Of a stretch of DNA of 64,000 nt, positions 39,536 through 56,876 are shown in pieces. The notes under the pieces were generated by a model. The model worked only from the letters and a program-made list of their open reading frames with translations, had not been told where the DNA came from and did no database searches. Both the position numbers and the translations under genes were made by a program. This stretch comes from a plasmid. The number at the start of each line of letters is the position of its first letter. The stretch's first letter is position 1. Location of the stretch: the NCBI RefSeq assembly GCF_056746865.1, contig NZ_JBWKMP010000004.1; one strand, given 5' to 3'.

Positions 39536-39860
39536 CTCCTCTTTTTACTGCGCCGGCTGACGCGGCGCGGCAGGAACGCTGCCTGTGGTCAGTGTCCCGC
39601 GTCCGGCCGGGCACGGGACGGGCGCTTTTACCGCTCCCGGCTGGCGTTGGTGACAGTGTACGCCAGCCCGTCGCCCTTTTCTGATGAACGCCCTTCAAGC
39701 CGCTTTCGCGGCATATCCTCGCCGTCAAAAAGACGACGGCTGCGGTATTCCACGGTCGGCCTGACCCGTTACCGGACGCGGTGAACAGCCCACAGGCAGC
39801 GGGGAACGGGCACCACAGGGGTGCCCTCCCGGTGCCCTCTGTAAGAGAAGGAGTGCTGTT

Positions 39861-42041: not shown

Positions 42042-42458
42042 TGACGTTGGCGGGGTAAATCCCCGCCTTTTTCCTGCCGGTCCCCGGACAGAGCACAAAG
42101 GAAGTCGCCGCCGGCTCCGCTTTACCCGGCCATGCGGGGCATGGCCTTGTGGGTTTTCAGTTATGTGGCCTCAGCGTCGTGTGCGGGCTGTGCCGTGCCT
42201 CCATCGTAGCCGGGCTGGCAGGGATGCAAGGGTACGCTTCGCCGCTGCGGTCACCCGGTCCCTCCTTCCCGTCTGCCGTGATTTTCCGGTCGTTCACCCG
42301 CTCAGATTTCGCGGTCTCACCCTCCAACTCCCGCCAGCCGTGTGCGTCAGGCTGCGGCTTCCCTTGCGCCCTGTGCATCCCCGCCTTATCGCCCGGCTTT
42401 TATGGAGGCACGGCACCGCCCGGTGTCGCGGAATATGTGAACAACGGAGGAAAACATC

Positions 42459-43353: not shown

Positions 43354-43879
43354 ATATCAGCACAGAAACCCGCGAAATTCTGCGCAATTACAAAGCCGTG
43401 ATTAATGCGCGGCGTCGTGAAATGGGGCAGAAACCGCTCACCACTGCGCAGATTGTTGATGAAATCTGCGATTTTGTGGCGAATCAGCAGGCTGTATTCC
43501 TCGGCGGTCACTACATCCTTCAGGGCAGCATAAACAGGTGATACAGGGGCAGGCGGTGGAGGCCGCCTGTCAGCCCGCGCGAAAACCCCTGGCAGGCTGA
43601 CGCCTGCCGGAAGGGAAGCGGGCCACGCTGGCGCGTCGCCCGTTACCCTTCCCGTCTGTGATGTGTCTGACTCAGGAGTGTTTCTTTCTTATGTTATGGA
43701 ACTGTTCCTGATGTTGTTGTTCCTTTATCTACTGCTCTGATTCTGACTACTGCAGTGTTGTTCTGTCTGCCGGGCGCACCTTCGGCTCCCGGCTGCCTGG
43801 CGGCATCCGGTCGTCAGGCCCGACTCCGACAGGCAGCTGCTGGCGCACCTGCCAGTCTCCGCCGAACCCGCTGGCGCGG

Positions 43880-44345
43880 TTTCGGGCTGCCGCTACGGTC
43901 CGATGCGTGAAAACCCCTGGCTTGCAGCGACCGTTCCGGTCGCGCCGCCTCTGTCGCGCCGTGGCCTGCGCTCCCGGCATCCCGGCAAAAGGCCGCCGGG
44001 ATGTAAGGGGCAACGCCGTTTCGCGCACGCGCTCTCCGTCGTTGCGGCGGGCCCCTGCTCATTGCCTGCCGGGTGCCACACACCCGTATGAGTCCCTGTC
44101 GCCGGGGGCATAGACAGCCACAACCTGCCGCACTGACTGTCCAGGGTAAATGAACAGCCCACAAAATTTTTTACCCAAAAACCGGTAAAAAATTTTGCGT
44201 TCTGCCCAGGACAGGTGCGTCAGGCCGTGGCAGTGATGCCCCTTGCGGCGAAGGTTCTCAAACGGGTGAAGTTCATACCACAGGGAATACAGCAGCAGGT
44301 TCCCGCGAAACGTCAAAACCGCGGCTCCCGAAACTCAACGGGTGA
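43880..44345 (+). repeat. Frpo/ssi-like leading-region repeat, copy 1 (diverged)
   Basis: ~85-90% identical to copies at 47090-47650 and 52565-53140; GC-rich stem-forming segment followed by conserved promoter-like core. Confidence 0.6.
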
Positions 44346-44578
44346 TGTTCTTTAAAAATCAGGATTTATTTCAGGCTCCGGCAATACGCATTTATTTGTT
44401 CTGTCAGTCATCCGGCTGGCAGGTAATGAGAACGCAGGAACAGAAGGAGGAAAACACCGGAGAACGTCAGACGCAGATATGAAAAAAGCAGGCCGGGGAG
44501 GACCTGCTTAATCCACACCGCAAAAACTGTTCGAGCAGTTTCTGCGGTTCCATTCAACAGTCATAAGGAGTTTCATTT

Positions 44579-44809
44579 ATGACGGTAAGTATTGTTTCAC
44601 CTTCCGCAGCGGCTGTAAAGCCCCGCCGTCATCCCCGTTTCAGACGCGAAGACATCCCCGCGCCGGAAATTGACCCCGTGCTGAAAGCCTTCGGGCGACA
44701 CATTGCCCGGAGTTTTCACCGGGGACGTGGTGTACACATCCCCGCCATGAAAAATACGGCTTTCGGGCAGGTGCTCCGCACACTCGAACTGAAACGCGCT
44801 TTTAACTGA
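44579..44809 (+). CDS. hypothetical protein (76 aa)
   Basis: ORF downstream of repeat copy 1. Confidence 0.4.
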   Translation: MTVSIVSPSAAAVKPRRHPRFRREDIPAPEIDPVLKAFGRHIARSFHRGRGVHIPAMKNTAFGQVLRTLELKRAFN

Positions 44810-44860
44810 TGAGGTGAGCCGCCCCGCGAGGGGCGGCAACAGACGGAAGGAGAACATTTT

Positions 44861-46222
44861 ATGACATTAGCTGCAATCACCATGACCGCCCCGGAAGCCG
44901 CCAGCCCTGTGCAGATGTACCGCGCGACCTACTCACCGGATGACAACAAACTGCGCCTGTATGCCGCGTCACGTCTTGACCCGGAGACGTATAAAAAAGT
45001 GCATGATGCCGGTTTCCGCTGGGCACCCAGACAGGCGCTGTTTGTCGCGCCAGCCTGGACACCGGGCCGGGAAGACGTGCTCCTCTCACTTGCCGGAGAG
45101 ATTGAGGATGAAGACAGCACGCTCGCTGAACGTCAGGAAGCACGGGCGGAGCGGTTTACCGGATACAGCGGAAAGCGGGCCAGTGAATCCGCACAGGCAC
45201 TTGATGAAGTGGAAAGACTGGCCGCGATGATCCCGCCCGGTCAGCCCATTCTTGTGGGGCATCACAGCGAACGCCGCGCCCGTCGTGATGCGCAGCGTAT
45301 TGAAAACGGCATGAAACGTGCCGTGATGCTCTTTGAACGTGCGGAATACTGGGAAGAACGGGCGCGGTCGGCACTGCTTCACGCGAAGTATAAAGAACGC
45401 CCGGACGTTCGCTGGCGTCGTATCAAAAAAATCGAAGCTGATTTGCGCAAGGCTGAAAAGACCATCGCACAGTCGCAGAAATATCTGACGATGTGGCGGG
45501 CTGAATCGCTGGATCTGAATATGGCAAAACTCATCAGCAGTCATGACCATATCAGCGCCTGTTTCCCGCTGGATACGTATCCGCGCCCGGCAGAAAAAAG
45601 CCAGTATGAAGGGAGCCGGTCGTTATGGTCGGCCCTGGATGATGACATCATCACCACGGAGCAGGCCCGCGAAATTGCGATCCGCTGTCATGAACGGCAG
45701 ATTCAGCATCAGCAACGCTGGGTTAACCACTATCAGAACCGCCTGATCTATGAGCGTGCCATGCTGGACGAAAGCGGCGGCGTGGTTACCCGGACACAGG
45801 ATTTTGAGCCGGGCGGACAGGTTTTCAGCCGGGGCGAGTGGCTGACTATCATCCGCGTGAACAAAAGCAACGGGGCGGTGAGTTCAGTCACAACGCCAAA
45901 TTACAGTTTTCTCGGGTACAGCGGCACGATGAAAGTGACGCCCGATCGCATCACGGACTACAAAGCACCATCGGCAGAAGAGGCTGCCGTCGCCAGTCAG
46001 GCCGCGAAGCGTCCGCCGGTAGTCAACTATCCGGGGGAAGGTTTCCGGGAAATGACAAAGGCGCAGTGGGCCGCCCTGCCCCGGGACTGTAAGGCCGTGC
46101 GCAGTGTGGAAGAAGCAGAAGACCACGGGGCATACCGCTACCGCCGCACAATGGACAATAATTTCCGTCTGGTGAATGTGTATATCACCGACATGAAAAT
46201 CACGGAAATCCCACAGAAATAA
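44861..46222 (+). CDS. hypothetical leading-region protein (453 aa)
   Basis: long ORF with AGGAGA RBS; charged and coiled-coil-like central region. Confidence 0.6.
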   Translation: MTLAAITMTAPEAASPVQMYRATYSPDDNKLRLYAASRLDPETYKKVHDAGFRWAPRQALFVAPAWTPGREDVLLSLAGEIEDEDSTLAERQEARAERFTGYSGKRASESAQALDEVERLAAMIPPGQPILVGHHSERRARRDAQRIENGMKRAVMLFERAEYWEERARSALLHAKYKERPDVRWRRIKKIEADLRKAEKTIAQSQKYLTMWRAESLDLNMAKLISSHDHISACFPLDTYPRPAEKSQYEGSRSLWSALDDDIITTEQAREIAIRCHERQIQHQQRWVNHYQNRLIYERAMLDESGGVVTRTQDFEPGGQVFSRGEWLTIIRVNKSNGAVSSVTTPNYSFLGYSGTMKVTPDRITDYKAPSAEEAAVASQAAKRPPVVNYPGEGFREMTKAQWAALPRDCKAVRSVEEAEDHGAYRYRRTMDNNFRLVNVYITDMKITEIPQK

Positions 46223-46268
46223 GGTATATCCCCCCGGGAAATCCCCGGGGGATGACGGAGATAATGAT

Positions 46269-46832
46269 ATGCACAGTCAGTTAAGAGAACGTATCCGGCT
46301 GATGCGCGCAAGGCTGGATAACGCCGCGCCGGTTGCTGAAATCCGGGCTGAATCTCAGCTTTTTGTGAGTCCTGCCCCGATCTGTGATCGCCTGGTGACG
46401 CTGGCGGAAATCAGCAACCGTGATCACATTCTGGAACCCTCTGCCGGCACCGGGGCCATACTGCGGGCGATTCGGGATACCGCGCCGGAGGCCATGTGTG
46501 ATGCGGTGGAGATTAACAGCGGGCTGGTCCGGTATCTGCGGGAAAATTTTAACGGTGTCAGGGTACAGTGTGGCGACTTCATGGAATGGCAGCCGGTGCA
46601 GTATTACAGCCGGATCATTATGAATCCGCCGTTCAGTCACGGGCAGGATATCCGGCATATCCTGCGGGCTTTTTCCCTGTTGCGTCCGGGGGGCGTTCTG
46701 GTTGCCGTCTGTCTCAACGGGCCACGCCAGCAGGAGAAGCTGTTACCGTTTTCTGACGTCCGCGAGGAGCTGCCGCGCGGCACGTTTGCTTATACCGATG
46801 TCCCGACGATGATTATTCGTTTGCGTGCCTGA
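46269..46832 (+). CDS. class I SAM-dependent methyltransferase (putative DNA MTase)
   Basis: AdoMet motif ILEPSAGTGAI and NPPF motif (IIMNPPFSHG). Confidence 0.6.
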   Translation: MHSQLRERIRLMRARLDNAAPVAEIRAESQLFVSPAPICDRLVTLAEISNRDHILEPSAGTGAILRAIRDTAPEAMCDAVEINSGLVRYLRENFNGVRVQCGDFMEWQPVQYYSRIIMNPPFSHGQDIRHILRAFSLLRPGGVLVAVCLNGPRQQEKLLPFSDVREELPRGTFAYTDVPTMIIRLRA

Positions 46833-47011
46833 TGACACAGGGCTGGCGGGAGGATAAATGCCCGTCTGTCCGCGCCGGGAAAAAACCGCGCGCCGGTGGC
46901 GCTGAAAGGGGCCGCGCTCACGCGCCGCCCCTTTCATTACGCGGACGTTCTGATGGGGGCTTCTGTCTTTTCAGACCTGTCATTTGTCTGTTACTGATGA
47001 TGTTGTTGTTC

Positions 47012-47071
47012 CTGCTACTGCTACTGCTACTGCTACTGCTACTGCTACTGCTACTGCTACTGCTACTGCTA
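47012..47071. repeat. perfect tandem hexanucleotide repeat (CTGCTA)x10
   Basis: read directly; followed by one imperfect unit CTGTTC. Confidence 0.95.
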
Positions 47072-47089
47072 CTGTTCTTCTTTTTTCTA

Positions 47090-47650
47090 CTGCCCTGATT
47101 ATTGTCTGTTTTGTTGTTCTCCTGCTTATGCCTTTTCCGGGCGTCCCCCTGGCGGGGCGGGCTGTCGTGAACGGAGCCAGCGAAGCTGTCTCCGCCCTGG
47201 CGGGCTTCCATCCCTGACGCAAAAACCCGGGTTTGCAGCGACCGGAACGGTCGCGCCACCCTTGTCGCGCCGTGGCCTGCGCTCCCGGCATCCCGGCAAA
47301 AGACGCCGGGATGTAAGGAGCAACGCCGTTTCGCAAACCGCGCTTCACGTCGTTGCGGCGGGTCCCTGCCCGTTGTTCTGTCCGGTGCCATTCACCTGTT
47401 TAAGCCCCTGTCGCCGGGGGCATAGACAGCCACAACCTGCCGCACTGACTGTCCAGGGTAAATGAACAGCCCACAAAATTTTTTACCCAAAACCCGGTAA
47501 AAAATTTTGCGTTCTGCCCAGGACAGGTGCGTCAGGCCGTGGCAGTGATGCCCCTTGCGGCGAAGGTTCTCAAACAGGTGATGGTGAATACCGGAGGGAA
47601 CAAAAGGCAGGTCCCCGCAAAACGTCAAAACCGCGGCTCCCGAAACTCAA
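47090..47650 (+). repeat. Frpo/ssi-like leading-region repeat, copy 2 (upstream of ssb)
   Basis: near-identical to copy 3 over ~560 bp. Confidence 0.7.
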
Positions 47651-47692
47651 CAGATGATGGGGGCTGAAAACATCAACAGAAGGAGACACATC

Positions 47693-48220
47693 ATGGCAGT
47701 TCGTGGCATTAACAAGGTCATTCTTGTCGGTCGTCTGGGAAAAGATCCGGAAGTCCGTTACATCCCCAACGGGGGCGCAGTGGCAAACCTGCAGGTGGCC
47801 ACGTCAGAAACCTGGCGCGACAAACAGACGGGGGAAATGAAGGAGCAGACGGAATGGCACCGCGTGGTGCTGTTCGGCAAGCTCGCGGAAGTGGCAGGTG
47901 AATATCTGCGTAAGGGGGCGCAGGTCTACATTGAAGGCCAGCTTCGCACCCGTAGCTGGGAAGATAACGGTATTACCCGTTACGTCACCGAAATCCTTGT
48001 TAAAACCACGGGCACCATGCAGATGCTGGGGAGTGCACCACAGCAGAACGCTCAGGTGCAACCGCAGCCTCAGCAGAATGGTCAGTCACAGAGTGCTGAC
48101 GCGACGAAAAAAGGGAGCGCGAAAACGAAAGGCCGTGGACGTAAGGCTGCGCAGCCGGAGCCTCAGCCGCAACCACCGGAGGGGGAGGATTACGGGTTTT
48201 CAGACGATATCCCGTTCTGA
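47693..48220 (+). CDS. ssb: plasmid single-stranded DNA-binding protein
   Basis: [48 protein letters not shown]... ; C-terminal acidic tail DDIPF. Confidence 0.9.
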
Positions 48221-48238
48221 CTGGCCTGACTGTGATAA

Positions 48239-48511
<273 letters not shown>

Positions 48512-48571
48512 GAGAGGTGCCGGACGGGGATCACGTCCGGCAGACATTAACTACACAATAAGGGGATAGTC

Positions 48572-50595
48572 ATGTCAGTAACAAAGTCTGAACCAAAATC
48601 TACCCGTAAAGCAAGCCGTAAACCTGCAAAAACGCAGGAAACTGTCCTGTCTGCCCTGCTGGCGCAGACGGAGGAAGTGAGCGTGCCGCTGGCCTCGCTG
48701 ATTAAGTCACCACTGAATGTGCGCACGGTGCCGTATTCTGCGGAGTCCGTCAGCGAACTGGCTGATTCCATTAAGGGGGTCGGCCTGCTGCAGAATCTGG
48801 TTGTTCATGCCCTGCCAGGTGACCGCCACGGTGTCGCCGCAGGTGGTCGCCGACTGGCAGCACTCAACATGCTGGCAGAGCGTGGCATCATTCCGGCTGA
48901 CTGGCCTGTCCGCGTGAAAATTATTTCGCAGGAACTGGCGACGGCCGCATCGATGACCGAGAACGGTCATCGTCGGGATATGCACCCAGCCGAACAGATT
49001 GCCGGATTCTGTGCAATGGCGCAGGAAGGCAAAACACCTGCACAAATCGGTGATTTGCTGGGCTATTCACCCCGCCACGTTCAGCGAATGCTGAAACTGG
49101 CTGACCTTGCGCCTGTCATCCTCGATGCGCTGGCAGAAGACCTCATCACCACCGAGCACTGTCAGGCGCTGGCGCTGGAGAACGACACCGCGCGTCAGGT
49201 GCAGGTGTTTGAAGCCGCCTGTCAGTCGGGATGGGGCGGTAAACCGGAAGTACAGACCATTCGTCGTCTGGTGACCGAAAGTGAAGTGGCGGTGGCAGGG
49301 AACAGTAAATTCCGCTTCGTGGGGGCTGATGCCTTCTCGCCAGATGAACTGCGCACTGACCTGTTCAGCGACGACGAGGGTGGCTATGTGGACTGCGTGG
49401 CGCTCGATGCCGCCCTGCTGGAAAAACTCCAGGCTGTTGCTGAACACCTTCGGGAAGCCGAAGGCTGGGGATGGTGCGCCGGACGCATGGAGCCTGTCGG
49501 TGAGTGCCGTGAGGATGCCGGAACATACCGCTGTCTGCCGGAGCCGGAAGCGGTGCTGACGGAGGCGGAAGAAGAACGTCTGAACGAACTGATGACGCGT
49601 TACGACGCGCTGGAAAACCAGTGTGAGGAATCTGACCTGCTGGAAGCAGAAATGAAGCTGATGCGCTGCATGGCGAAGGTCAGGGCGTGGACGCCGGAGA
49701 TGCGTGCCGGAAGCGGTGTGGTGGTGTCCTGGCGTTATGGCAACGTGTGTGTCCAGCGTGGTGTGCAGTTGCGCAGCGAGGATGATGCGGCTGACGACGC
49801 TGACCGCACGGAACAGGTGCAGGAGAAAGCGCCCGTGGAGGAAATCAGTCTGCCACTGCTGACGAAAATGTCTTCCGAACGCACGCTGGCAGTCCAGGCA
49901 GCACTGATGCAGCAACCGGACAAATCTCTGGCACTGCTGGCATGGACGCTCTGCCCTGATGAATCCCCTAATGATTTTTACCAAAATCATTAGGGGATTC
50001 ATCAGCGCTCTGCCTGAATGTGTTTGGCAGCGGAGCGTACAGTAAACCAGCACAAATCAGCCTGGAATGTAAACATTATTCGCTGACCAGCGATGCGCCA
50101 TCGGGGAAGGACGGTGCCGCATTCCTGGCGCTGATGGCAGAAAAAGCCCGTCTTGCAGCCCTGTTACCGGAGGGATGGTCACGGGATATGACGACATTCC
50201 TGTCACTCAGCCAGGAGGTACTGTTATCCCTGCTCAGTTTCTGCACCGCGTGCAGCATCCACGGCGTTCAGACCCGCGAGCATGGTCACACGTCACGCAG
50301 TCCGCTGGACTCGCTGGAGAGCGCTATCGGATTCCACATGCGCGACTGGTGGCAGCCGACGAAAGCAAACTTCTTCGGACACCTGCAAAAGCCGCAGATT
50401 ATCGATGCCCTGAATGATGCCGGACTGTCCGGTGCTGCGCGGGACGCGGAGAAAATGAAGAAAGGCGATGCCGCTGAACATGCAGAGTTCCACATGAAAG
50501 ACAACCGCTGGGTGCCTGGCTGGATGTGTACACCACGTCCACAGGCAGAGACGGAAACCACGGAGTACCGTGACGACCAGGCAGAAGCCGCCTGA
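48572..50595 (+). pseudogene. ParB-like nuclease domain protein, interrupted at 49947-50014 by a 50-bp Tn10 remnant plus 9-bp duplication
   Basis: two adjacent track ORFs (48572-49993, 50020-50595) in different frames; removing 59 bp restores a ~655-aa frame. Confidence 0.75.
49956..50005. mobile_element. 50-bp IS10/Tn10 nearly-precise-excision remnant
   Basis: CTGATGAATCCCCTAATGATTTT-TACC-AAAATCATTAGGGGATTCATCAG (two IS10 outside-end 23-mers inverted); flanked by 9-bp direct repeat CGCTCTGCC. Confidence 0.8.
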
Positions 50596-50663
50596 CCGCC
50601 AGTCATAAACCATTTATCACGCCGCCCTGCCGGAGACGGGGCGGCAGCAAGGGAGATACCGTG

Positions 50664-51098
50664 ATGAAAACTGAACTGACCCTGAATGTATTACAGACCA
50701 TGAGCGCACAGGAATATGAAGATATCCGGGCTGCCGGAAGTGATGAACGTCGTGAACTCACACATGCCGTGATGCGGGAGCTGGATGCGCCGGATAACTG
50801 GACGATGAACGGCGAGTATGGCAGCGAGTTCGGCGGCTTTTTCCCCGTCCAGGTCCGTTTCACGCCTGCCCACGAACGTTTTCACCTGGCGTTATGTTCA
50901 CCGGGCGATGTCTCTCAGGTCTGGGTGCTGGTTCTGGTGAATGCCGGTGGTGAGCCGTTTGCGGTGGTTCAGGTACAGCGGCGGTTTGCACCGGAAGCCG
51001 TCAGCCATTCACTGGCACTGGCGGCGTCACTGGACGCGCAGGGGTACAGCGTCAGTGACATCATCCATATCCTGATGGCGGAAGGAGGTCAGGCATGA
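50664..51098 (+). CDS. psiB: plasmid SOS inhibition protein PsiB
   Basis: [41 protein letters not shown]... Confidence 0.9.
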
Positions 51099-51814
51099 GC
51101 GCACGTTCACAGGCACTGGTTCCCCTCAGCGCAGAGCAACAGGCCGCATGGCGGGCGGTGGCGGAGACAGAAAAACGCCGCCACCAGGGAAACACGCTGG
51201 CGGAATATCCGTATGCGGGGGCGTTTTTCCGCTGTCTGAACGGAAGCCGCAGGATATCGCTGTCTGACCTGCGATTTTTCATGCCGTCCCTGACCGCAGA
51301 AGAACTGCGCGGCAACCGTTCTCAGTGGCTGTATGCCGTCGATGTGCTGATTGAAACTCAGGGCGAGGTCTGCCTTCTTCCCCTTCCCGGCGATGCAGCA
51401 GAGCGGCTGTTCCCGTCGGTGCGGTTCCGTGTCAGGGAGCGCAGTCGCCACAAATCCGCACTGGTCATGCAAAAGTACAGCCGCCAGCAGGCGAGGGAGG
51501 CAGAGCAGAAAGCCCGTGCGTACCAGGCGCTGGTCGCTCAGGCTGAAATCGAACTGGCATTCCATTCGCCGGAAACAGTCGGAAGCTGGCATGCACGCTG
51601 GAGTGACCGGGTGGCAGAGCATGACCTGGAAACCCTGTTCTGGCAGTGGGGTGAGCGTTTTCCGTCACTGGCCGGAATGGAACGCTGGCAGTGGCAGGAT
51701 ATGCCGTTCTGGCAGGTTATTGCGGAAGCCAGTCTTGCAGCAAGAGAGGCCGGTCACGCTGTCCGTGAGATGGAGCGGTGGATGGTGCCGAACAAACTCC
51801 GGGAGGCGGCGTGA
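51095..51814 (+). CDS. psiA: PsiA
   Basis: 239-aa ORF overlapping psiB stop. Confidence 0.85.
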
Positions 51815-52035
51815 TGCGGCAACAATCACACAGATTACCCGTAAACAGCCTGAATGAGCGGGTTATTTTCAGGAAAAGTGAGTGTGGTCAGCGTGCAGGT
51901 ATATGGGCTATGATGTGCCCGGCGCTTGAGGCTTTCTGCCTCATGACGTGAAGGTGGTTTGTTACCGTGTTGTGTGGCAGAAAGAAGATAGCCCCGTAGT
52001 AAGTTAATTTTCATTAACCACCACGAGGCATCCCT

Positions 52036-52248
52036 ATGTCTAGTCCACATCAGGATAGCCTCTTACCGCGCTTTGCGCAAGGAGAAGAAGGCCATGAAAC
52101 TACCACGAAGTTCCCTTGTCTGGTGTGTGTTGATCGTGTGTCTCACACTGTTGATATTCACTTATCTGACACGAAAATCGCTGTGCGAGATTCGTTACAG
52201 AGACGGACACAGGGAGGTGGCGGCTTTCATGGCTTACGAATCCGGTAA
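52036..52248 (+). CDS. mok: Mok-like reading frame overlapping hok (translational coupling element)
   Basis: 70-aa frame overlapping the hok ORF in another frame, as in hok/sok-type loci. Confidence 0.45.
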
Positions 52249-52252
52249 GTAG
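52094..52252 (+). CDS. hok: Hok-family type I toxin (FlmA/SrnB-like)
   Basis: 52-aa [52 protein letters not shown]. Confidence 0.85.
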
Positions 52253-52564
52253 CAACCTGGAGGCGGGCGCAGGCCCGCCTTTTCAGGGCTGATGCTGGTC
52301 TGACTGCACTGAAGCGCCTTTATAAAGGGGCTGCTGGTTCGCCGGTGGCCCCTTTCTCCTTGCTGGCATTGTACGGGCATGAACAACCAGACTGCCAGGA
52401 AGGCCGTTTCCCTCCGGGAACGGGGATGAACGTGCGCCTGCGGCGCCCGTTCTTTTCCCCCGCCTTCTCTGTTTATGACTTACCAGAAATCACATCACCT
52501 TCCCTTTGATTATTCTCTTTTTCCTCCTGCTCTGACTCTGATTACTGCTCTGACTCTGATTACT

Positions 52565-53140
52565 GCTGCCCTGATTATTGTCTGTTTTGTTGTTCTCCTG
52601 CTTATGCCTTTTCCGGGCGTCCCCCTGGCGGGGCGGGCTGTCGTGAACGGAGCCAGCGAAGCTGTCTCCGCCCTGGCGGGCTTCCATCCCTGACGCAAAA
52701 ACCCGGGTTTGCAGCGACCGGAACGGTCGCGCCACCCTTGTCGCGCCGTGGCCTGCGCTCCCGGCATCCCGGCAAAAGACGCCGGGATGTAAGGAGCAAC
52801 GCCGTTTCGCAAACCGCGCTTCACGTCGTTGCGGCGGGTCCCTGCCCGTTGTTCTGTCCGGTGCCATTCACCTGTTTAAGCCCCTGTCGCCGGGGGCATA
52901 GACAGCCACAACCTGCCGCACTGACTGTCCAGGGTAAATGAACAGCCCACAAAATTTTTTACCCAAAACCCGGTAAAAAATTTTGCGTTCTGCCCAGGAC
53001 AGGTGCGTCAGGCCGTGGCAGTGATGCCCCTTGCGGCGAAGGTTCTCAAACAGGTGATGGTGAATACCGGAGGGAACAAAAGGCAGGTCCCCGCAAAACG
53101 TCAAAACCGCGGCTCCCGAAACTCAACAGATGATGGGGGC
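52565..53140 (+). repeat. Frpo/ssi-like leading-region repeat, copy 3
   Basis: near-identical to 47090-47650. Confidence 0.7.
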
Positions 53141-53166
53141 TGAAAACATCAGATACAGGAGGAATT

Positions 53167-53463
53167 ATGAGCGCATTTTCTTTTAACACCACTTATCAGC
53201 CAACAGGCGATCAGCAGAAAGACGCAATCGCACAAATCGGGATCATGCAGAATCGTGCTGTTCAGGCAAATCTTGCATATCAGAGCTGCCGGGATTCTGG
53301 TGCACTCTTTAAGGTGCTCCACCAGGTCAATAATGAGCTGCATGACTTACTGGATAGCCTGGAGAATCATACTCCTCTTGTCAGAAAAAACGCTGATGAG
53401 TTGATCGCGCTGTTACTGCTTTTCACTCGGCAGGTTGGTCAGTCCCGAACTGACCTGATTTGA
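53167..53463 (+). CDS. hypothetical protein (98 aa)
   Basis: ORF with AGGAGGA RBS 7 nt upstream. Confidence 0.55.
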   Translation: MSAFSFNTTYQPTGDQQKDAIAQIGIMQNRAVQANLAYQSCRDSGALFKVLHQVNNELHDLLDSLENHTPLVRKNADELIALLLLFTRQVGQSRTDLI

Positions 53464-53573
53464 TGGTCCTTCCCCTCGGAATTGTTGTCTTTTTGTTAAC
53501 GATAACCGAGGGGGGATGATATTAAGCGAAAAAACTTTTATTAATTTTATGCCTTCATAAAGGAGTTACTGTT

Positions 53574-54395
53574 ATGCGATTAGCTTCCCGTTTTGGTCGA
53601 TATAATTCTATTCGCCGTGAGCGCCCGTTAACGGATGACGAATTAATGCAGTTTGTTCCATCTGTCTTTTCTGGTGATAAACATGAATCCCGGAGTGAGC
53701 GTTATACATATATCCCAACCATCAATATCATCAATAAGTTACGTGATGAAGGTTTCCAGCCATTCTTTGCCTGTCAGAGTCGGGTTCGTGATTTGGGACG
53801 CCGCGAATACAGTAAACATATGTTACGTCTTCGCAGGGAAGGGCATATTAACGGGAAAGAAGTTCCTGAAATTATCCTGCTTAATTCACATGATGGTTCA
53901 TCCAGTTATCAGATGATCCCAGGAATTTTTCGTTTTGTCTGCACAAATGGCCTGGTGTGTGGGAATAATTTTGGCGAAATCCGCGTTCCACATAAAGGTG
54001 ATATTGTCGGGCAGGTTATTGAGGGAGCGTATGAAGTGCTCGGTGTCTTTGATAAAGTCACTGAAAATATGGAGACAATGAAAGAGATACATCTTAACAG
54101 TGACGAACAACATTTATTTGGCAGAGCTGCATTGATGGCCAGGTACGAAGATGAAAATAAAACGCCAGTGACGCCAGAACAAATAATTACTCCCCGCCGT
54201 TGGGAGGATAAACAGAACGATCTCTGGACAACCTGGCAGCGGGTTCAGGAGAATATGATAAAAGGTGGATTATCGGGGCGAAGTGCCTCCGGTAAAAATA
54301 CCAGAACAAGAGCCATTACAGGCATTGACGGTGATATCCGAATCAACAAAGCATTATGGATGATTGCCGAACAGTTCAGGGAGTGGAAGTCATGA
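53574..54395 (+). CDS. hypothetical leading-region protein (273 aa)
   Basis: ORF with AGGAG RBS; conserved neighbour of oriT in F-like plasmids from memory. Confidence 0.6.
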   Translation: MRLASRFGRYNSIRRERPLTDDELMQFVPSVFSGDKHESRSERYTYIPTINIINKLRDEGFQPFFACQSRVRDLGRREYSKHMLRLRREGHINGKEVPEIILLNSHDGSSSYQMIPGIFRFVCTNGLVCGNNFGEIRVPHKGDIVGQVIEGAYEVLGVFDKVTENMETMKEIHLNSDEQHLFGRAALMARYEDENKTPVTPEQIITPRRWEDKQNDLWTTWQRVQENMIKGGLSGRSASGKNTRTRAITGIDGDIRINKALWMIAEQFREWKS

Positions 54396-54691
54396 TAATA
54401 TAAGTAAAGCCCCGAAAAATTTTTCGGGGCTTTACTTATATTATCATCCTGCGGCATTGCTGTGTCGTCTGATATGCCTCAATTTCATCAACTGGCTTTT
54501 CGGTAGTCTGTAAATATTGTGCCCGCGAAAAATGGTCTGGCAGGAGGCTGCGCAGTTACCGGATATATATAAGATGGGATCCCGCTTTGCGGGGCTTCGG
54601 CCAGTCAGCATTATCACTCATATGATATTTTTGTGTGTGGCCTTCCATGCCGCTGTCGCGGCATAACCGGTATTTGACAATGTATACAATA

Positions 54692-55201
54692 TTAATTTTT
54701 CTGCACACTGTTAATTTGGGAAAGTGATTTCTTCGTGGTCGGAACCCGGATGCCTTTACTGCTCTTTATCCAGGTATAAATCCGGTAAACCTCTGATGCG
54801 TAGGCAAGACGTCTCTGGTTCTGGCGTTCGGTCTTCCTGAATCCGGCATTGTATGCACCAACGGCCTCCCAGGAGACGCCCCATTTTTTAAAGGCTATTG
54901 CCAGATAATAAGCACCGGTATAAATGTTCATACAGGGATCTGTTGTCAGATGTTCCGGCTTAATTCCATAGCGGGCCAGTTCGTTAAAATGCTGGGAATC
55001 TACCTGCATCAGTCCGCTGCCATATCCCGTTACCGGATTAATACCGATGGCATTAACCCGGTAACGGGATTCTTTCCATGATATCGCTCTCAGTAAATCC
55101 GGGTCTATTTTGTAATCCCGACCTGCAAGATCAAAGCAATCGGCGGCTTCGCAGATCCCATTTATAAACATCAGGCAGATTGCTAACATCCATTTTTTCA
55201 T
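54692..55201 (-). CDS. lytic transglycosylase (F orf169-like)
   Basis: 169-aa with signal peptide [19 protein letters not shown]; track ORF extends spuriously upstream across oriT. Confidence 0.8.
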
Positions 55202-55239
55202 TTTTCCACCTCTGGTGACTTTATCCGTAAATAATTTAA

Positions 55240-55560
55240 CCCACTCCACAAAAAGGCTCAACAGGTTGGTGGTTCTCACCACCAAAAGCACCACACCCCA
55301 CGCAAAAACAAGTTTTTGCTGATTTGCTTTTTGAATCATTAGCTTATGTTTTAAATAATGTATTTTAATTTATTTTACATTATTAAATAGGGGCGTTGAC
55401 GACCCTATGGCGACCCTATGGCGACCCTTGTTAGGGTCAGTACTGACAAATTTTATGAAAAACATTTGGATATATTAGGGCCGCCCCTAGCAGCGCCGTG
55501 CGTTTTTTTATAGTATGCCCCTAGGGGCGCTGCTAGGGGTGCTCTTCTTTTTTCAGACCA
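55240..55560. promoter_or_regulatory. oriT: oriT region (nic region and TraM/TraY binding repeats)
   Basis: GGTGTGGTGCTTTTGGTGGTGAGAACCACCAACC-like nic region on reverse complement near 55255-55300; direct repeats GACCCTATGGC x2 and palindrome CCCCTAGCAGCGC...GCGCTGCTAGGGG at 55400-55540; upstream of traM. Confidence 0.65.
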
Positions 55561-55615
55561 AACTATGAGTAAATGAAATAAAACACTTGTTTCAGAATAT
55601 AAAAGGTACTGTCTT

Positions 55616-55999
55616 ATGGCCAGAGTAAATCTGTATATCAGTAATGAGGTTCATGAAAAAATTAACATGATTGTTGAAAAGCGTCGTCAGGAGGGAGCAA
55701 GAGATAAAGATATAAGCCTTTCAGGAACTGCTTCAATGCTTCTTGAATTGGGGCTTCGCGTATATGATGCACAGATGGAGCGTAAAGAGTCTGCGTTTAA
55801 CCAGACAGAGTTTAATAAACTTCTTCTTGAATGTGTTGTAAAAACACAGTCAACGGTGGCAAAGATTTTAGGTATTGAGTCTCTCAGTCCTCATGTCTCC
55901 GGAAACCCGAAGTTTGAATATGCCAGTATGGTTGACGATATCAGAGAGAAAGTGTCTGTTGAGATGGACCGGTTTTTTCCAAAAAATGATGATGAATAA
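55616..55999 (+). CDS. traM: relaxosome protein TraM
   Basis: 127-aa MARVNLYISNEVHEKINMIVEKRRQEGARDKDISLSG... Confidence 0.9.
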   Translation: MARVNLYISNEVHEKINMIVEKRRQEGARDKDISLSGTASMLLELGLRVYDAQMERKESAFNQTEFNKLLLECVVKTQSTVAKILGIESLSPHVSGNPKFEYASMVDDIREKVSVEMDRFFPKNDDE

Positions 56000-56189
56000 A
56001 TGAAAATGAAGTTTGAGTTGGTTCAAATATAAGAATTTTTATGATTCAAAAAGATGACAATACGTCAGATAATTAGTATATTAATTACGTGGTTAATGCC
56101 ACGTTAAAAATTGAAACTGAAAATCGCCGATGCAGGGAGGTCTGAACTCCCTGCATCGACTGTCCATAGAATCCTTAACGGAGGTTCCT

Positions 56190-56876
56190 ATGTGTGCGCT
56201 GGATCGTAGAGAAAGGCCACTTAACAGTCAATCTGTAAATAAGTACATCCTTAACGTTCAGAATATCTACAGAAATTCTCCCGTTCCGGTTTGTGTCCGT
56301 AACAAAAACCGGAAAATCCTTTATGCCAATGGGGCTTTTATTGAACTCTTTTCCAGAGAAGATAAACCCTTATCCGGAGAGAGTTATATACGTCTGCAGG
56401 TTGAAATTTTTCTTTCATCACTTGAACTGGAATGCCAGGCTCTTGGACATGGCTCTGCATTTTGTCGTCGTTTTAATTTTCATGGCGAAATCTATCAGAT
56501 AAGGATGGAGAATGTTTCTTTTTATAATGACGAATCTGTTGTTTTATGGCAAATTAATCCGTTTCCTGATTATCCATTTTTTGCGTTAAGTCAGAGTGGA
56601 AGTAATACAAATACTTCTGATAAATTAACGATATGGAATGATCTTTCCCCCGGGACATTGCTTGTTTTCTCTTTTTATATGCTGGGTGTTGGTCATGCAA
56701 CAATTGCCAGAGAATTGGGTATTACAGACAGAGCATCTGAGGATCGAATTAAACCAGTTAAACGGAAAATAAAAGAATTTTTTGAACACTTTGATTTATT
56801 CAGAGTGTCATGTATCTATAAAGGGAAAATAGATTTGCTATTAAATATAATTCGTGAATTTTATAGCGTTAAGTAA
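56190..56876 (+). CDS. traJ: transfer activator TraJ
   Basis: track ORF 56130-56876; probable start at MCALDRR (56190); position between traM and traY. Confidence 0.75.

Follow-up and report, generated by a model that had tools for sequence, protein, structure and literature searches.

Among the single-stranded DNA (ssDNA) promoters described from plasmid leading regions, those closest to the elements reported here are Frpo of the F plasmid and ssi1-3 of the IncI1 plasmids ColIb-P9 and pESBL. Frpo was defined in vitro by Masai and Arai (1997), to go by the summary of that work in PMC7690428. Wen et al. distinguished three classes of ssDNA promoter, with start sites determined by 5′ rapid amplification of cDNA ends in pESBL, and placed Frpo and ssi1-3 together in class 1 (PMC12672017). 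Homologs of Frpo have already been catalogued by BLAST, yielding 13,089 in 6,006 conjugative elements (PMC11541004) and an occurrence in 74% of the PsiB plasmids of PLSDB (PMC12826799); three Frpo repeats flanking leading-region modules were reported for IncI plasmids in 2013 (PMC3817090). We examined a 64,000-nucleotide stretch of plasmid DNA (the window; contig NZ_JBWKMP010000004.1 of RefSeq assembly GCF_056746865.1), which is from an IncFII/FIA F-like plasmid, and found three large repeats in its leading region that are very probably class 1 (Frpo/ssiD-type) ssDNA promoters. Elements of this kind are already known and are ordinary for F-like plasmids. Coordinates are collected in Table 1.

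Comparison of the window with itself (blastn and repeat search) gave exactly three direct repeats in the leading region and no further copy, essentially at the positions given in an earlier note made from the letters alone. Copies 2 and 3, which that note called nearly identical, are in fact 100% identical over 586 bp; copy 1, which it called diverged, is 89.1% identical to the other two over 441 aligned positions, with fainter similarity reaching leftward to ~43800. The unit common to all three is 43910-44347, 47221-47659 and 52697-53135. In the three-way alignment a GC-rich left part is followed by a nearly invariant central core and, at the right end, by the CGTCAAAACCGCGGCTCCCGAAACTCAAC motif; the conserved core with this ending had been remarked upon before and is present in 3/3 copies. 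Each copy stands ahead of a gene block, as had also been proposed, and all blocks are co-oriented.

We aligned the repeats to the reference sequences of the Samuel et al. (2024) supplement (F ssiD = D90178, F ssiE = D90180, Frpo2-acrIIA4 and ColIb-P9 ssi; PMC11541004) and to F itself (NC_002483). All three copies align to both F Frpo elements, Frpo2 upstream of ssb and Frpo1 upstream of ygeA, and to the published ssiD, in agreement with the Frpo/ssi-like identity suggested at the outset. F ssiD/Frpo is 88% identical over ~350 nt to the hairpin segments of copies 2 and 3, and 79% identical to that of copy 1. The Frpo2-acrIIA4 construct, which worked in vivo and rescued conjugation from Cas9 (PMC11541004), shares 97.6% identity with copy 2. 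F Frpo1, which is ssiD and the member with biochemical characterisation, occupies the same place as copy 3 and is homologous across the whole ~350-nt hairpin; its central hairpin is a distinct variant with compensatory changes relative to copy 3. F Frpo2 (ssp1b) occupies the same place as copy 2, directly upstream of ssb, and is alike in central hairpin, tip and bulge. ColIb-P9/pESBL ssi1-3 likewise come as three dispersed copies per leading region, each before an early operon, and have the hairpin core (77-80% identity to the repeats over ~90 nt) and a short flank motif (93%; 23 nt) in common with the window repeats, whereas their outer stems have diverged past BLAST recognition. The earlier note had also suggested a comparison with F ssiE, and here no relation emerged: ssiE is likewise a single-strand initiation sequence of the leading region, but its sequence is unrelated, it matches the window only outside the repeats (Table 1), and the repeats give no match to D90180, so that it is ruled out as a relative.

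Positions 43500-56500 (13 kb) match p2019XSD11-92, a conjugative IncFII/FIA plasmid, at 100% identity but for a 6-bp length difference, and also match thousands of other F-like plasmids. In F transfer the nicked strand enters the recipient 5′ to 3′. The position of the F nic sequence GCGTGGGGTGTGGTGCTTT on the minus strand of the window identifies this strand as the one transferred, and the region left of the origin of transfer (oriT) enters first. The nick position within GCGTGGGGTGTGGTGCTTT is presumably the one known from F TraI studies. The leading genes all lie on the plus strand, and the transferred strand is therefore their template; the repeats are found 2-11.5 kb left of nic.

The capacity for extensive stem formation noticed earlier is borne out by folding. 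For copy 2 the minus-strand fold has an energy of -170.8 kcal/mol (shuffles -108.7 +/- 5.1; z = -12.3). When 36-56 kb was folded in sliding 300-nt segments, no minimum was deeper than those of the three hairpins, which reach -98 to -100 kcal/mol where the mean is -47. Every copy has the same fold, a single imperfect hairpin of ~330 nt with an A/T-rich 16-bp tip, and a conserved 8-nt bulge sits directly above the conserved stem CCCTGGACAG/CTGTCCTGGG. Covariation was scored on the transferred strand of ten homologs (copy 1, copy 2/3, two from F, three from ColIb-P9, one from Serratia and two from an insect metagenome). Their consensus fold has 53 pairs, 16 of them with compensatory double changes; 94.1% of cells are paired, compared with 38-46% when partners are slid by 1-3 columns, and the covariation score is 0.317, compared with at most 0.068 in controls, a value reached by 0 of 500 shuffles. 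The transferred strand has 6-8 G-T pairs versus 1-3 on the plus strand, where the identical pairs are 13-15 kcal/mol worse. As modelled, this asymmetry favours selection of the structure on the transferred DNA strand.

Plasmids normally carry three copies, F with two being the exception. The hairpin query matched at least 5000 plasmid records at 13,413 places, an average of ~2.7 each; R100 contains three, the best of them 100% identical to copy 2. F is without copy 1 and without the gene block behind it, a block present in at least 5000 records. Within plasmids the copies are homogenised by concerted evolution. In the 439-bp shared unit, the identity of copy 3 is 100% to copy 2 of its own plasmid but only 86% to F Frpo1, its positional counterpart; the three copies of pTW10590_155 are 98-99.8% alike. 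Two forms of the outer stem occur, each complementary to itself, one of copy-1 type and one of copy-2/3 type. F Frpo2 differs from copy 2 in being a mosaic of these, its 3′ arm partly of copy-1 type and its 5′ arm of copy-2 type, and it is more weakly paired (outer arms -16.1 kcal/mol versus -26.5 given a copy-2-type partner; whole element -87.7 versus -109.8 kcal/mol). The mosaic is in keeping with a past deletion of the DUF3560/methyltransferase block in F through recombination of one repeat with another. A clean two-parent crossover was rejected as its origin, since the informative sites switch several times, hence the term mosaic. Copies 2 and 3 have a hok/sok locus between them, copies 1 and 2 have none; flm of F, homologous to hok/sok, was argued by Couturier et al. 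to protect that interval from deletion between repeats.

Homology, strand, fold, covariation and position relative to genes come from the present analysis; that RNA polymerase recognises such elements, that the genes behind them are expressed early and that they give rise to priming is taken from the literature on F, ColIb-P9 and pESBL. Put together, they suggest the following course of events. In conjugation the minus strand would be nicked at oriT near 55290 and led in 5′ end first, the part from 55 kb to 43 kb arriving early and single-stranded. Each repeat on the entering strand would form its imperfect hairpin, the stem mimicking duplex promoter DNA. Host sigma70 RNA polymerase would bind this stem and transcribe the transferred strand towards its 5′ end, which is rightwards in the window. 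The mRNA from copy 3 would carry the ygeA-like and DUF932 genes, that from copy 2 the genes from ssb to psiB and psiA, and that from copy 1 the 76-residue open reading frame (ORF), the DUF3560 protein and the methyltransferase. Transcripts could stay as RNA-DNA hybrids and prime complementary-strand synthesis; once the complementary strand had been made the hairpin would be gone, and expression would be a transient burst (zygotic induction).

We searched the hairpin for sigma70-like boxes. The sole position-conserved pair, TTGAGA and CATCAC or TAAACC at a spacing of 17-19 nt, is found in 7 of the 10 homologs (F-like, Serratia, insect). Its candidate boxes in the window lie on the 5′ arm, the -10 candidate inside an internal loop, and TTGAGA is invariant, unlike the sequence it pairs with. 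Were this pair the promoter, RNA synthesis would begin near 47425, on the 3′ arm, and pass around the tip before heading for ssb. The -35/-10 placement is one that we infer, the fold accommodating canonical boxes in no unambiguous way, and the functional case rests on close homology to validated elements and not on box assignment. The 8-nt bulge TTCATTTA was tried as a -10 box with TTGTGG as -35, and rejected: the spacing is only ~5-7 nt, and the insect-metagenome variants have too short a tip. On the plus strand, a consensus pattern scan of 43400-47800, upstream of the copy-1 and copy-2 blocks, gave no sigma70-like promoter, as would be expected of elements inactive in duplex form.

Several points weigh against assignment of the repeats as ssDNA promoters. 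The best sigma70-like match, TTGAGA-17-CATCAC, scores just 8/12; the pair was not found in the ColIb-P9 elements, themselves validated promoters; and a second placement, using the A-tract and TTGTGG on the 3′ arm, is a possible alternative to it. SSB-stimulated transcription of ssDNA by RNA polymerase and zygotic induction of the genes behind the repeats would hold in this plasmid by analogy with the F and IncI1 homologs, for which both have been shown. Copy 1 combines the lower identity to ssiD with a distance of ~232 nt to its first gene and an antisense small RNA (sRNA) gene there, and its output may be regulated differently. Deletion of Frpo2 from F caused no drop in conjugation efficiency in plating assays (PMC9849209), so that not every copy need have a large effect on fitness.

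The repeats might instead be mainly priming signals (ssi) for complementary-strand synthesis, a short RNA being extended by DNA polymerase III and gene expression being secondary; we regard this as a possibility to be kept in view, though short of probable. It was as a single-strand initiation sequence that F ssiD was originally isolated, and the Frpo RNA-DNA hybrid persists and primes DNA synthesis (PMC7690428). Priming from ssp1/Frpo transcripts has in vivo support, with rifampicin-sensitive early conversion events reported downstream of ssp1/Frpo promoters (bioRxiv 10.64898/2026.01.09.698686), and three dispersed copies would provide three priming points on the first-entering strand. Priming is, however, compatible with promoter function, the literature treating both as outputs of one element, and by itself it leaves unexplained why each copy is placed directly before a co-oriented block, with the ribosome-binding site within ~40 nt for copies 2 and 3.

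A composite reading keeps the Frpo hairpin and adds to it a separate conserved GC-rich module on the transferred-strand 3′ side with a function of its own, the repeats serving also as a recombination scaffold for gain and loss of leading-region gene modules; this we consider rather unlikely. The 23-nt motif GGGAGCGCAGGCCACGGCGCGAC of this flank is kept in ColIb-P9 ssi1-3 and in the insect-metagenome elements, the 93% match of the flank being to the 3′ end of the ColIb-P9 ssi sequence. In F-like copies GGGAGCGCAGGCCACGGCGCGAC is followed by a second GGCGCGAC and by a hairpin, GCGACCG-NNNN-CGGTCGC, whose loop is inverted, GGAA in copy 1 and TTCC in copies 2/3; the stretches concerned, motif included, are 43937-43975, 47248-47286 and 52724-52762 (minus strand). 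The flank module might insulate consecutive ssDNA-transcribed operons, or might pause complementary-strand synthesis as reported for ssp2. On this reading, exchange between a repeat of copy-1 type and one of copy-2 type would have cost F the DUF3560/methyltransferase module.

It is very unlikely that the structure acts as RNA, whether by forming a structured 5′ untranslated region (UTR) on the mRNA of the genes behind it or by serving the operon before it as a terminator or insulator. The plus strand of copy 2 does fold well too (-152.4 kcal/mol, z = -8.2), and a transcript started on the 3′ arm and run round the tip would carry the inner hairpin. The conserved G-T pairs of the transferred strand, however, become A-C mismatches in plus-sense RNA, at the cost in stability given above. 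Nor do the repeats bear an intrinsic-terminator signature on the plus strand: a search gave only a weak 5-bp stem at 47357-47370 with the tail CGTTGTTCTG, and no T-run after any large stem. With Rfam covariance models no match was found within any copy at E up to 1, and together these results rule out a terminator or a known RNA family. That the repeats are functionless leftovers of segmental duplication or recombination, or parts of protein-coding genes, is scarcely credible: the copies have clearly exchanged by recombination, and the GC-rich parts are crossed by several long ORFs on the minus strand (one in the public record; a hypothetical ORF is annotated, e.g., at 43814-44062), but no common reading frame would survive the single-base indels that distinguish copy 1 from copies 2/3, and these indels, with the covariation of the base pairs, rule the ORFs out as coding, while the element recurs across plasmid records in the numbers given above and near-identical F elements have been shown to be functional.

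We examined the gene blocks and other features near the three putative promoters. The distance to the start codon of the first gene is about 20-40 nt for copies 2 and 3, which lack the 232-nt spacer of copy 1; that spacer is occupied by the AS-pc01 sRNA gene. The sRNA gene has its own sigma70-like promoter (TTTACA-17-AACAAT, 44619-44591) and a terminator at 44509-44486, and overlaps the ribosome-binding site and start of the 76-residue ORF (44579). Other Rfam matches near the repeats are the traJ 5′ UTR/FinP at 56.1 kb and sok at 51.9 kb. In the block behind copy 2, the ParB-like gene (48572-50595) is a homolog of the ParB/RepB/Spo0J-family gene in the ssb-psiB operon of F; it is frameshifted, with residues 1-461 in one frame and 460-652 in another, its region is ~65 nt longer than that of F, and the public record lists no coding sequence there. 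Just after the DUF932 gene, 54340-54463 gave weak Rfam matches on both strands (His_leader and several microRNA models), all under gathering scores; this strong inverted repeat is probably a bidirectional terminator.

Two further segments, 42125-42424 and 39550-39849, form strong transferred-strand folds (-84.8 and -94.7 kcal/mol per 300 nt). Located ahead of the antirestriction (klcA/ardB-like) and DNA methylase genes, these segments are 96-97% identical to the corresponding regions of F; by position and homology they appear to be the published class 2 (ssp2, 'Frpo3') and class 3 ssDNA promoters. These classes follow the same logic as the repeats, a long transferred-strand hairpin before an early operon, and have no sequence similarity to the three repeats (window self-blastn; PMC12672017).

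Just to the left of copy 2 there is a perfect (CTGCTA) array of 10.5 units (47012-47074), and to the left of copy 3 an 18-nt repeat (52527-52577). The ORF at 46832-47098 crosses the array and would encode a poly-leucine tail. The offset of gene coordinates places the 6 bp that are extra relative to the closest public record between 46832 and 48214, and one added CTGCTA unit probably accounts for them. A group II intron (ltrA) occurs in near-identical Klebsiella plasmids and, in two copies, in pTW10590_155. The junctions in pTW10590_155 put the intron on the transferred-strand-sense strand, exactly between GAAGGTGCGC and CCGGCAGACAG, and the position of ltrA in the Klebsiella plasmid p69-2 is consistent with insertion at the same site. 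The intron is antisense to the leading genes, spanning 9373-11796 of L004 and ~274-2700 of L005 in the comparison loci. In the window the corresponding site is empty; it is 43763-43783 (minus strand), at the outer edge of the GC-rich flank of copy 1.

Table 1. Repeats, hairpins and associated features, in positions of the window
Feature	Position	Strand	Remarks
Copy 1	43910-44347	minus	89% identity to copies 2 and 3
Copy 2	47090-47675	minus	stretch 100% identical to copy 3; ~18 nt to ssb start codon at 47693
Copy 3	52566-53151	minus	identical to copy 2; ~16 nt to start codon at 53167
Copy 1 hairpin	44004-44336	minus	long, imperfect; tip loop 44176-44183; minimum free energy -98.5 to -102.6 kcal/mol
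Copy 2 hairpin	47314-47663	minus	~330 nt; tip loop 47488-47495; from folds, covariation and ssiD homology
Copy 3 hairpin	52790-53139	minus	ssiD/Frpo-homologous; tip loop 52964-52971
8-nt unpaired bulge TTCATTTA	47459-47466 (= 44147-44154, 52935-52942)	minus	conserved; 3′ arm
GC-rich flank module	47221-47313, 43910-44003, 52697-52789	minus	small hairpins and 23-nt motif GGGAGCGCAGGCCACGGCGCGAC
23-nt motif GGGAGCGCAGGCCACGGCGCGAC	43953-43975, 47264-47286, 52740-52762	minus	exact in 3/3 copies
Candidate sigma70-like boxes, copy 2	47545-47573	minus	putative; TTGAGA 47573-47568, 17-nt spacer, CATCAC 47550-47545
Equivalent candidate boxes, copies 1 and 3	44233-44261 (copy 1), 53021-53049 (copy 3)	minus	
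Block behind copy 1	44579-46832	plus	76-residue ORF, DUF3560 protein, class I S-adenosylmethionine (SAM) methyltransferase; absent from F
Block behind copy 2	47693-51814	plus	ssb, DUF905 protein, frameshifted ParB-like gene, psiB, psiA
Block behind copy 3	53167-54395	plus	98-residue ORF where F has ygeA, DUF932 protein
Antisense sRNA gene	44483-44619	minus	Rfam RF02875 AS-pc01, 89.7 bits
F ssiE homolog	54509-54697		single match, 91.6%; near oriT, between DUF932 gene and SLT transglycosylase gene
oriT nic region	55285-55303	minus	single exact match to F sequence GCGTGGGGTGTGGTGCTTT

For annotation, the assignment explains three large 'non-coding' GC-rich repeats, fixes the transferred strand and marks the blocks likely to be expressed early. 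As ssDNA promoters, these elements would set the moment at which a resistance plasmid entering a cell first expresses its genes, those for SOS inhibition, SSB and anti-restriction functions, and they would thereby be of relevance to blocking plasmid establishment.

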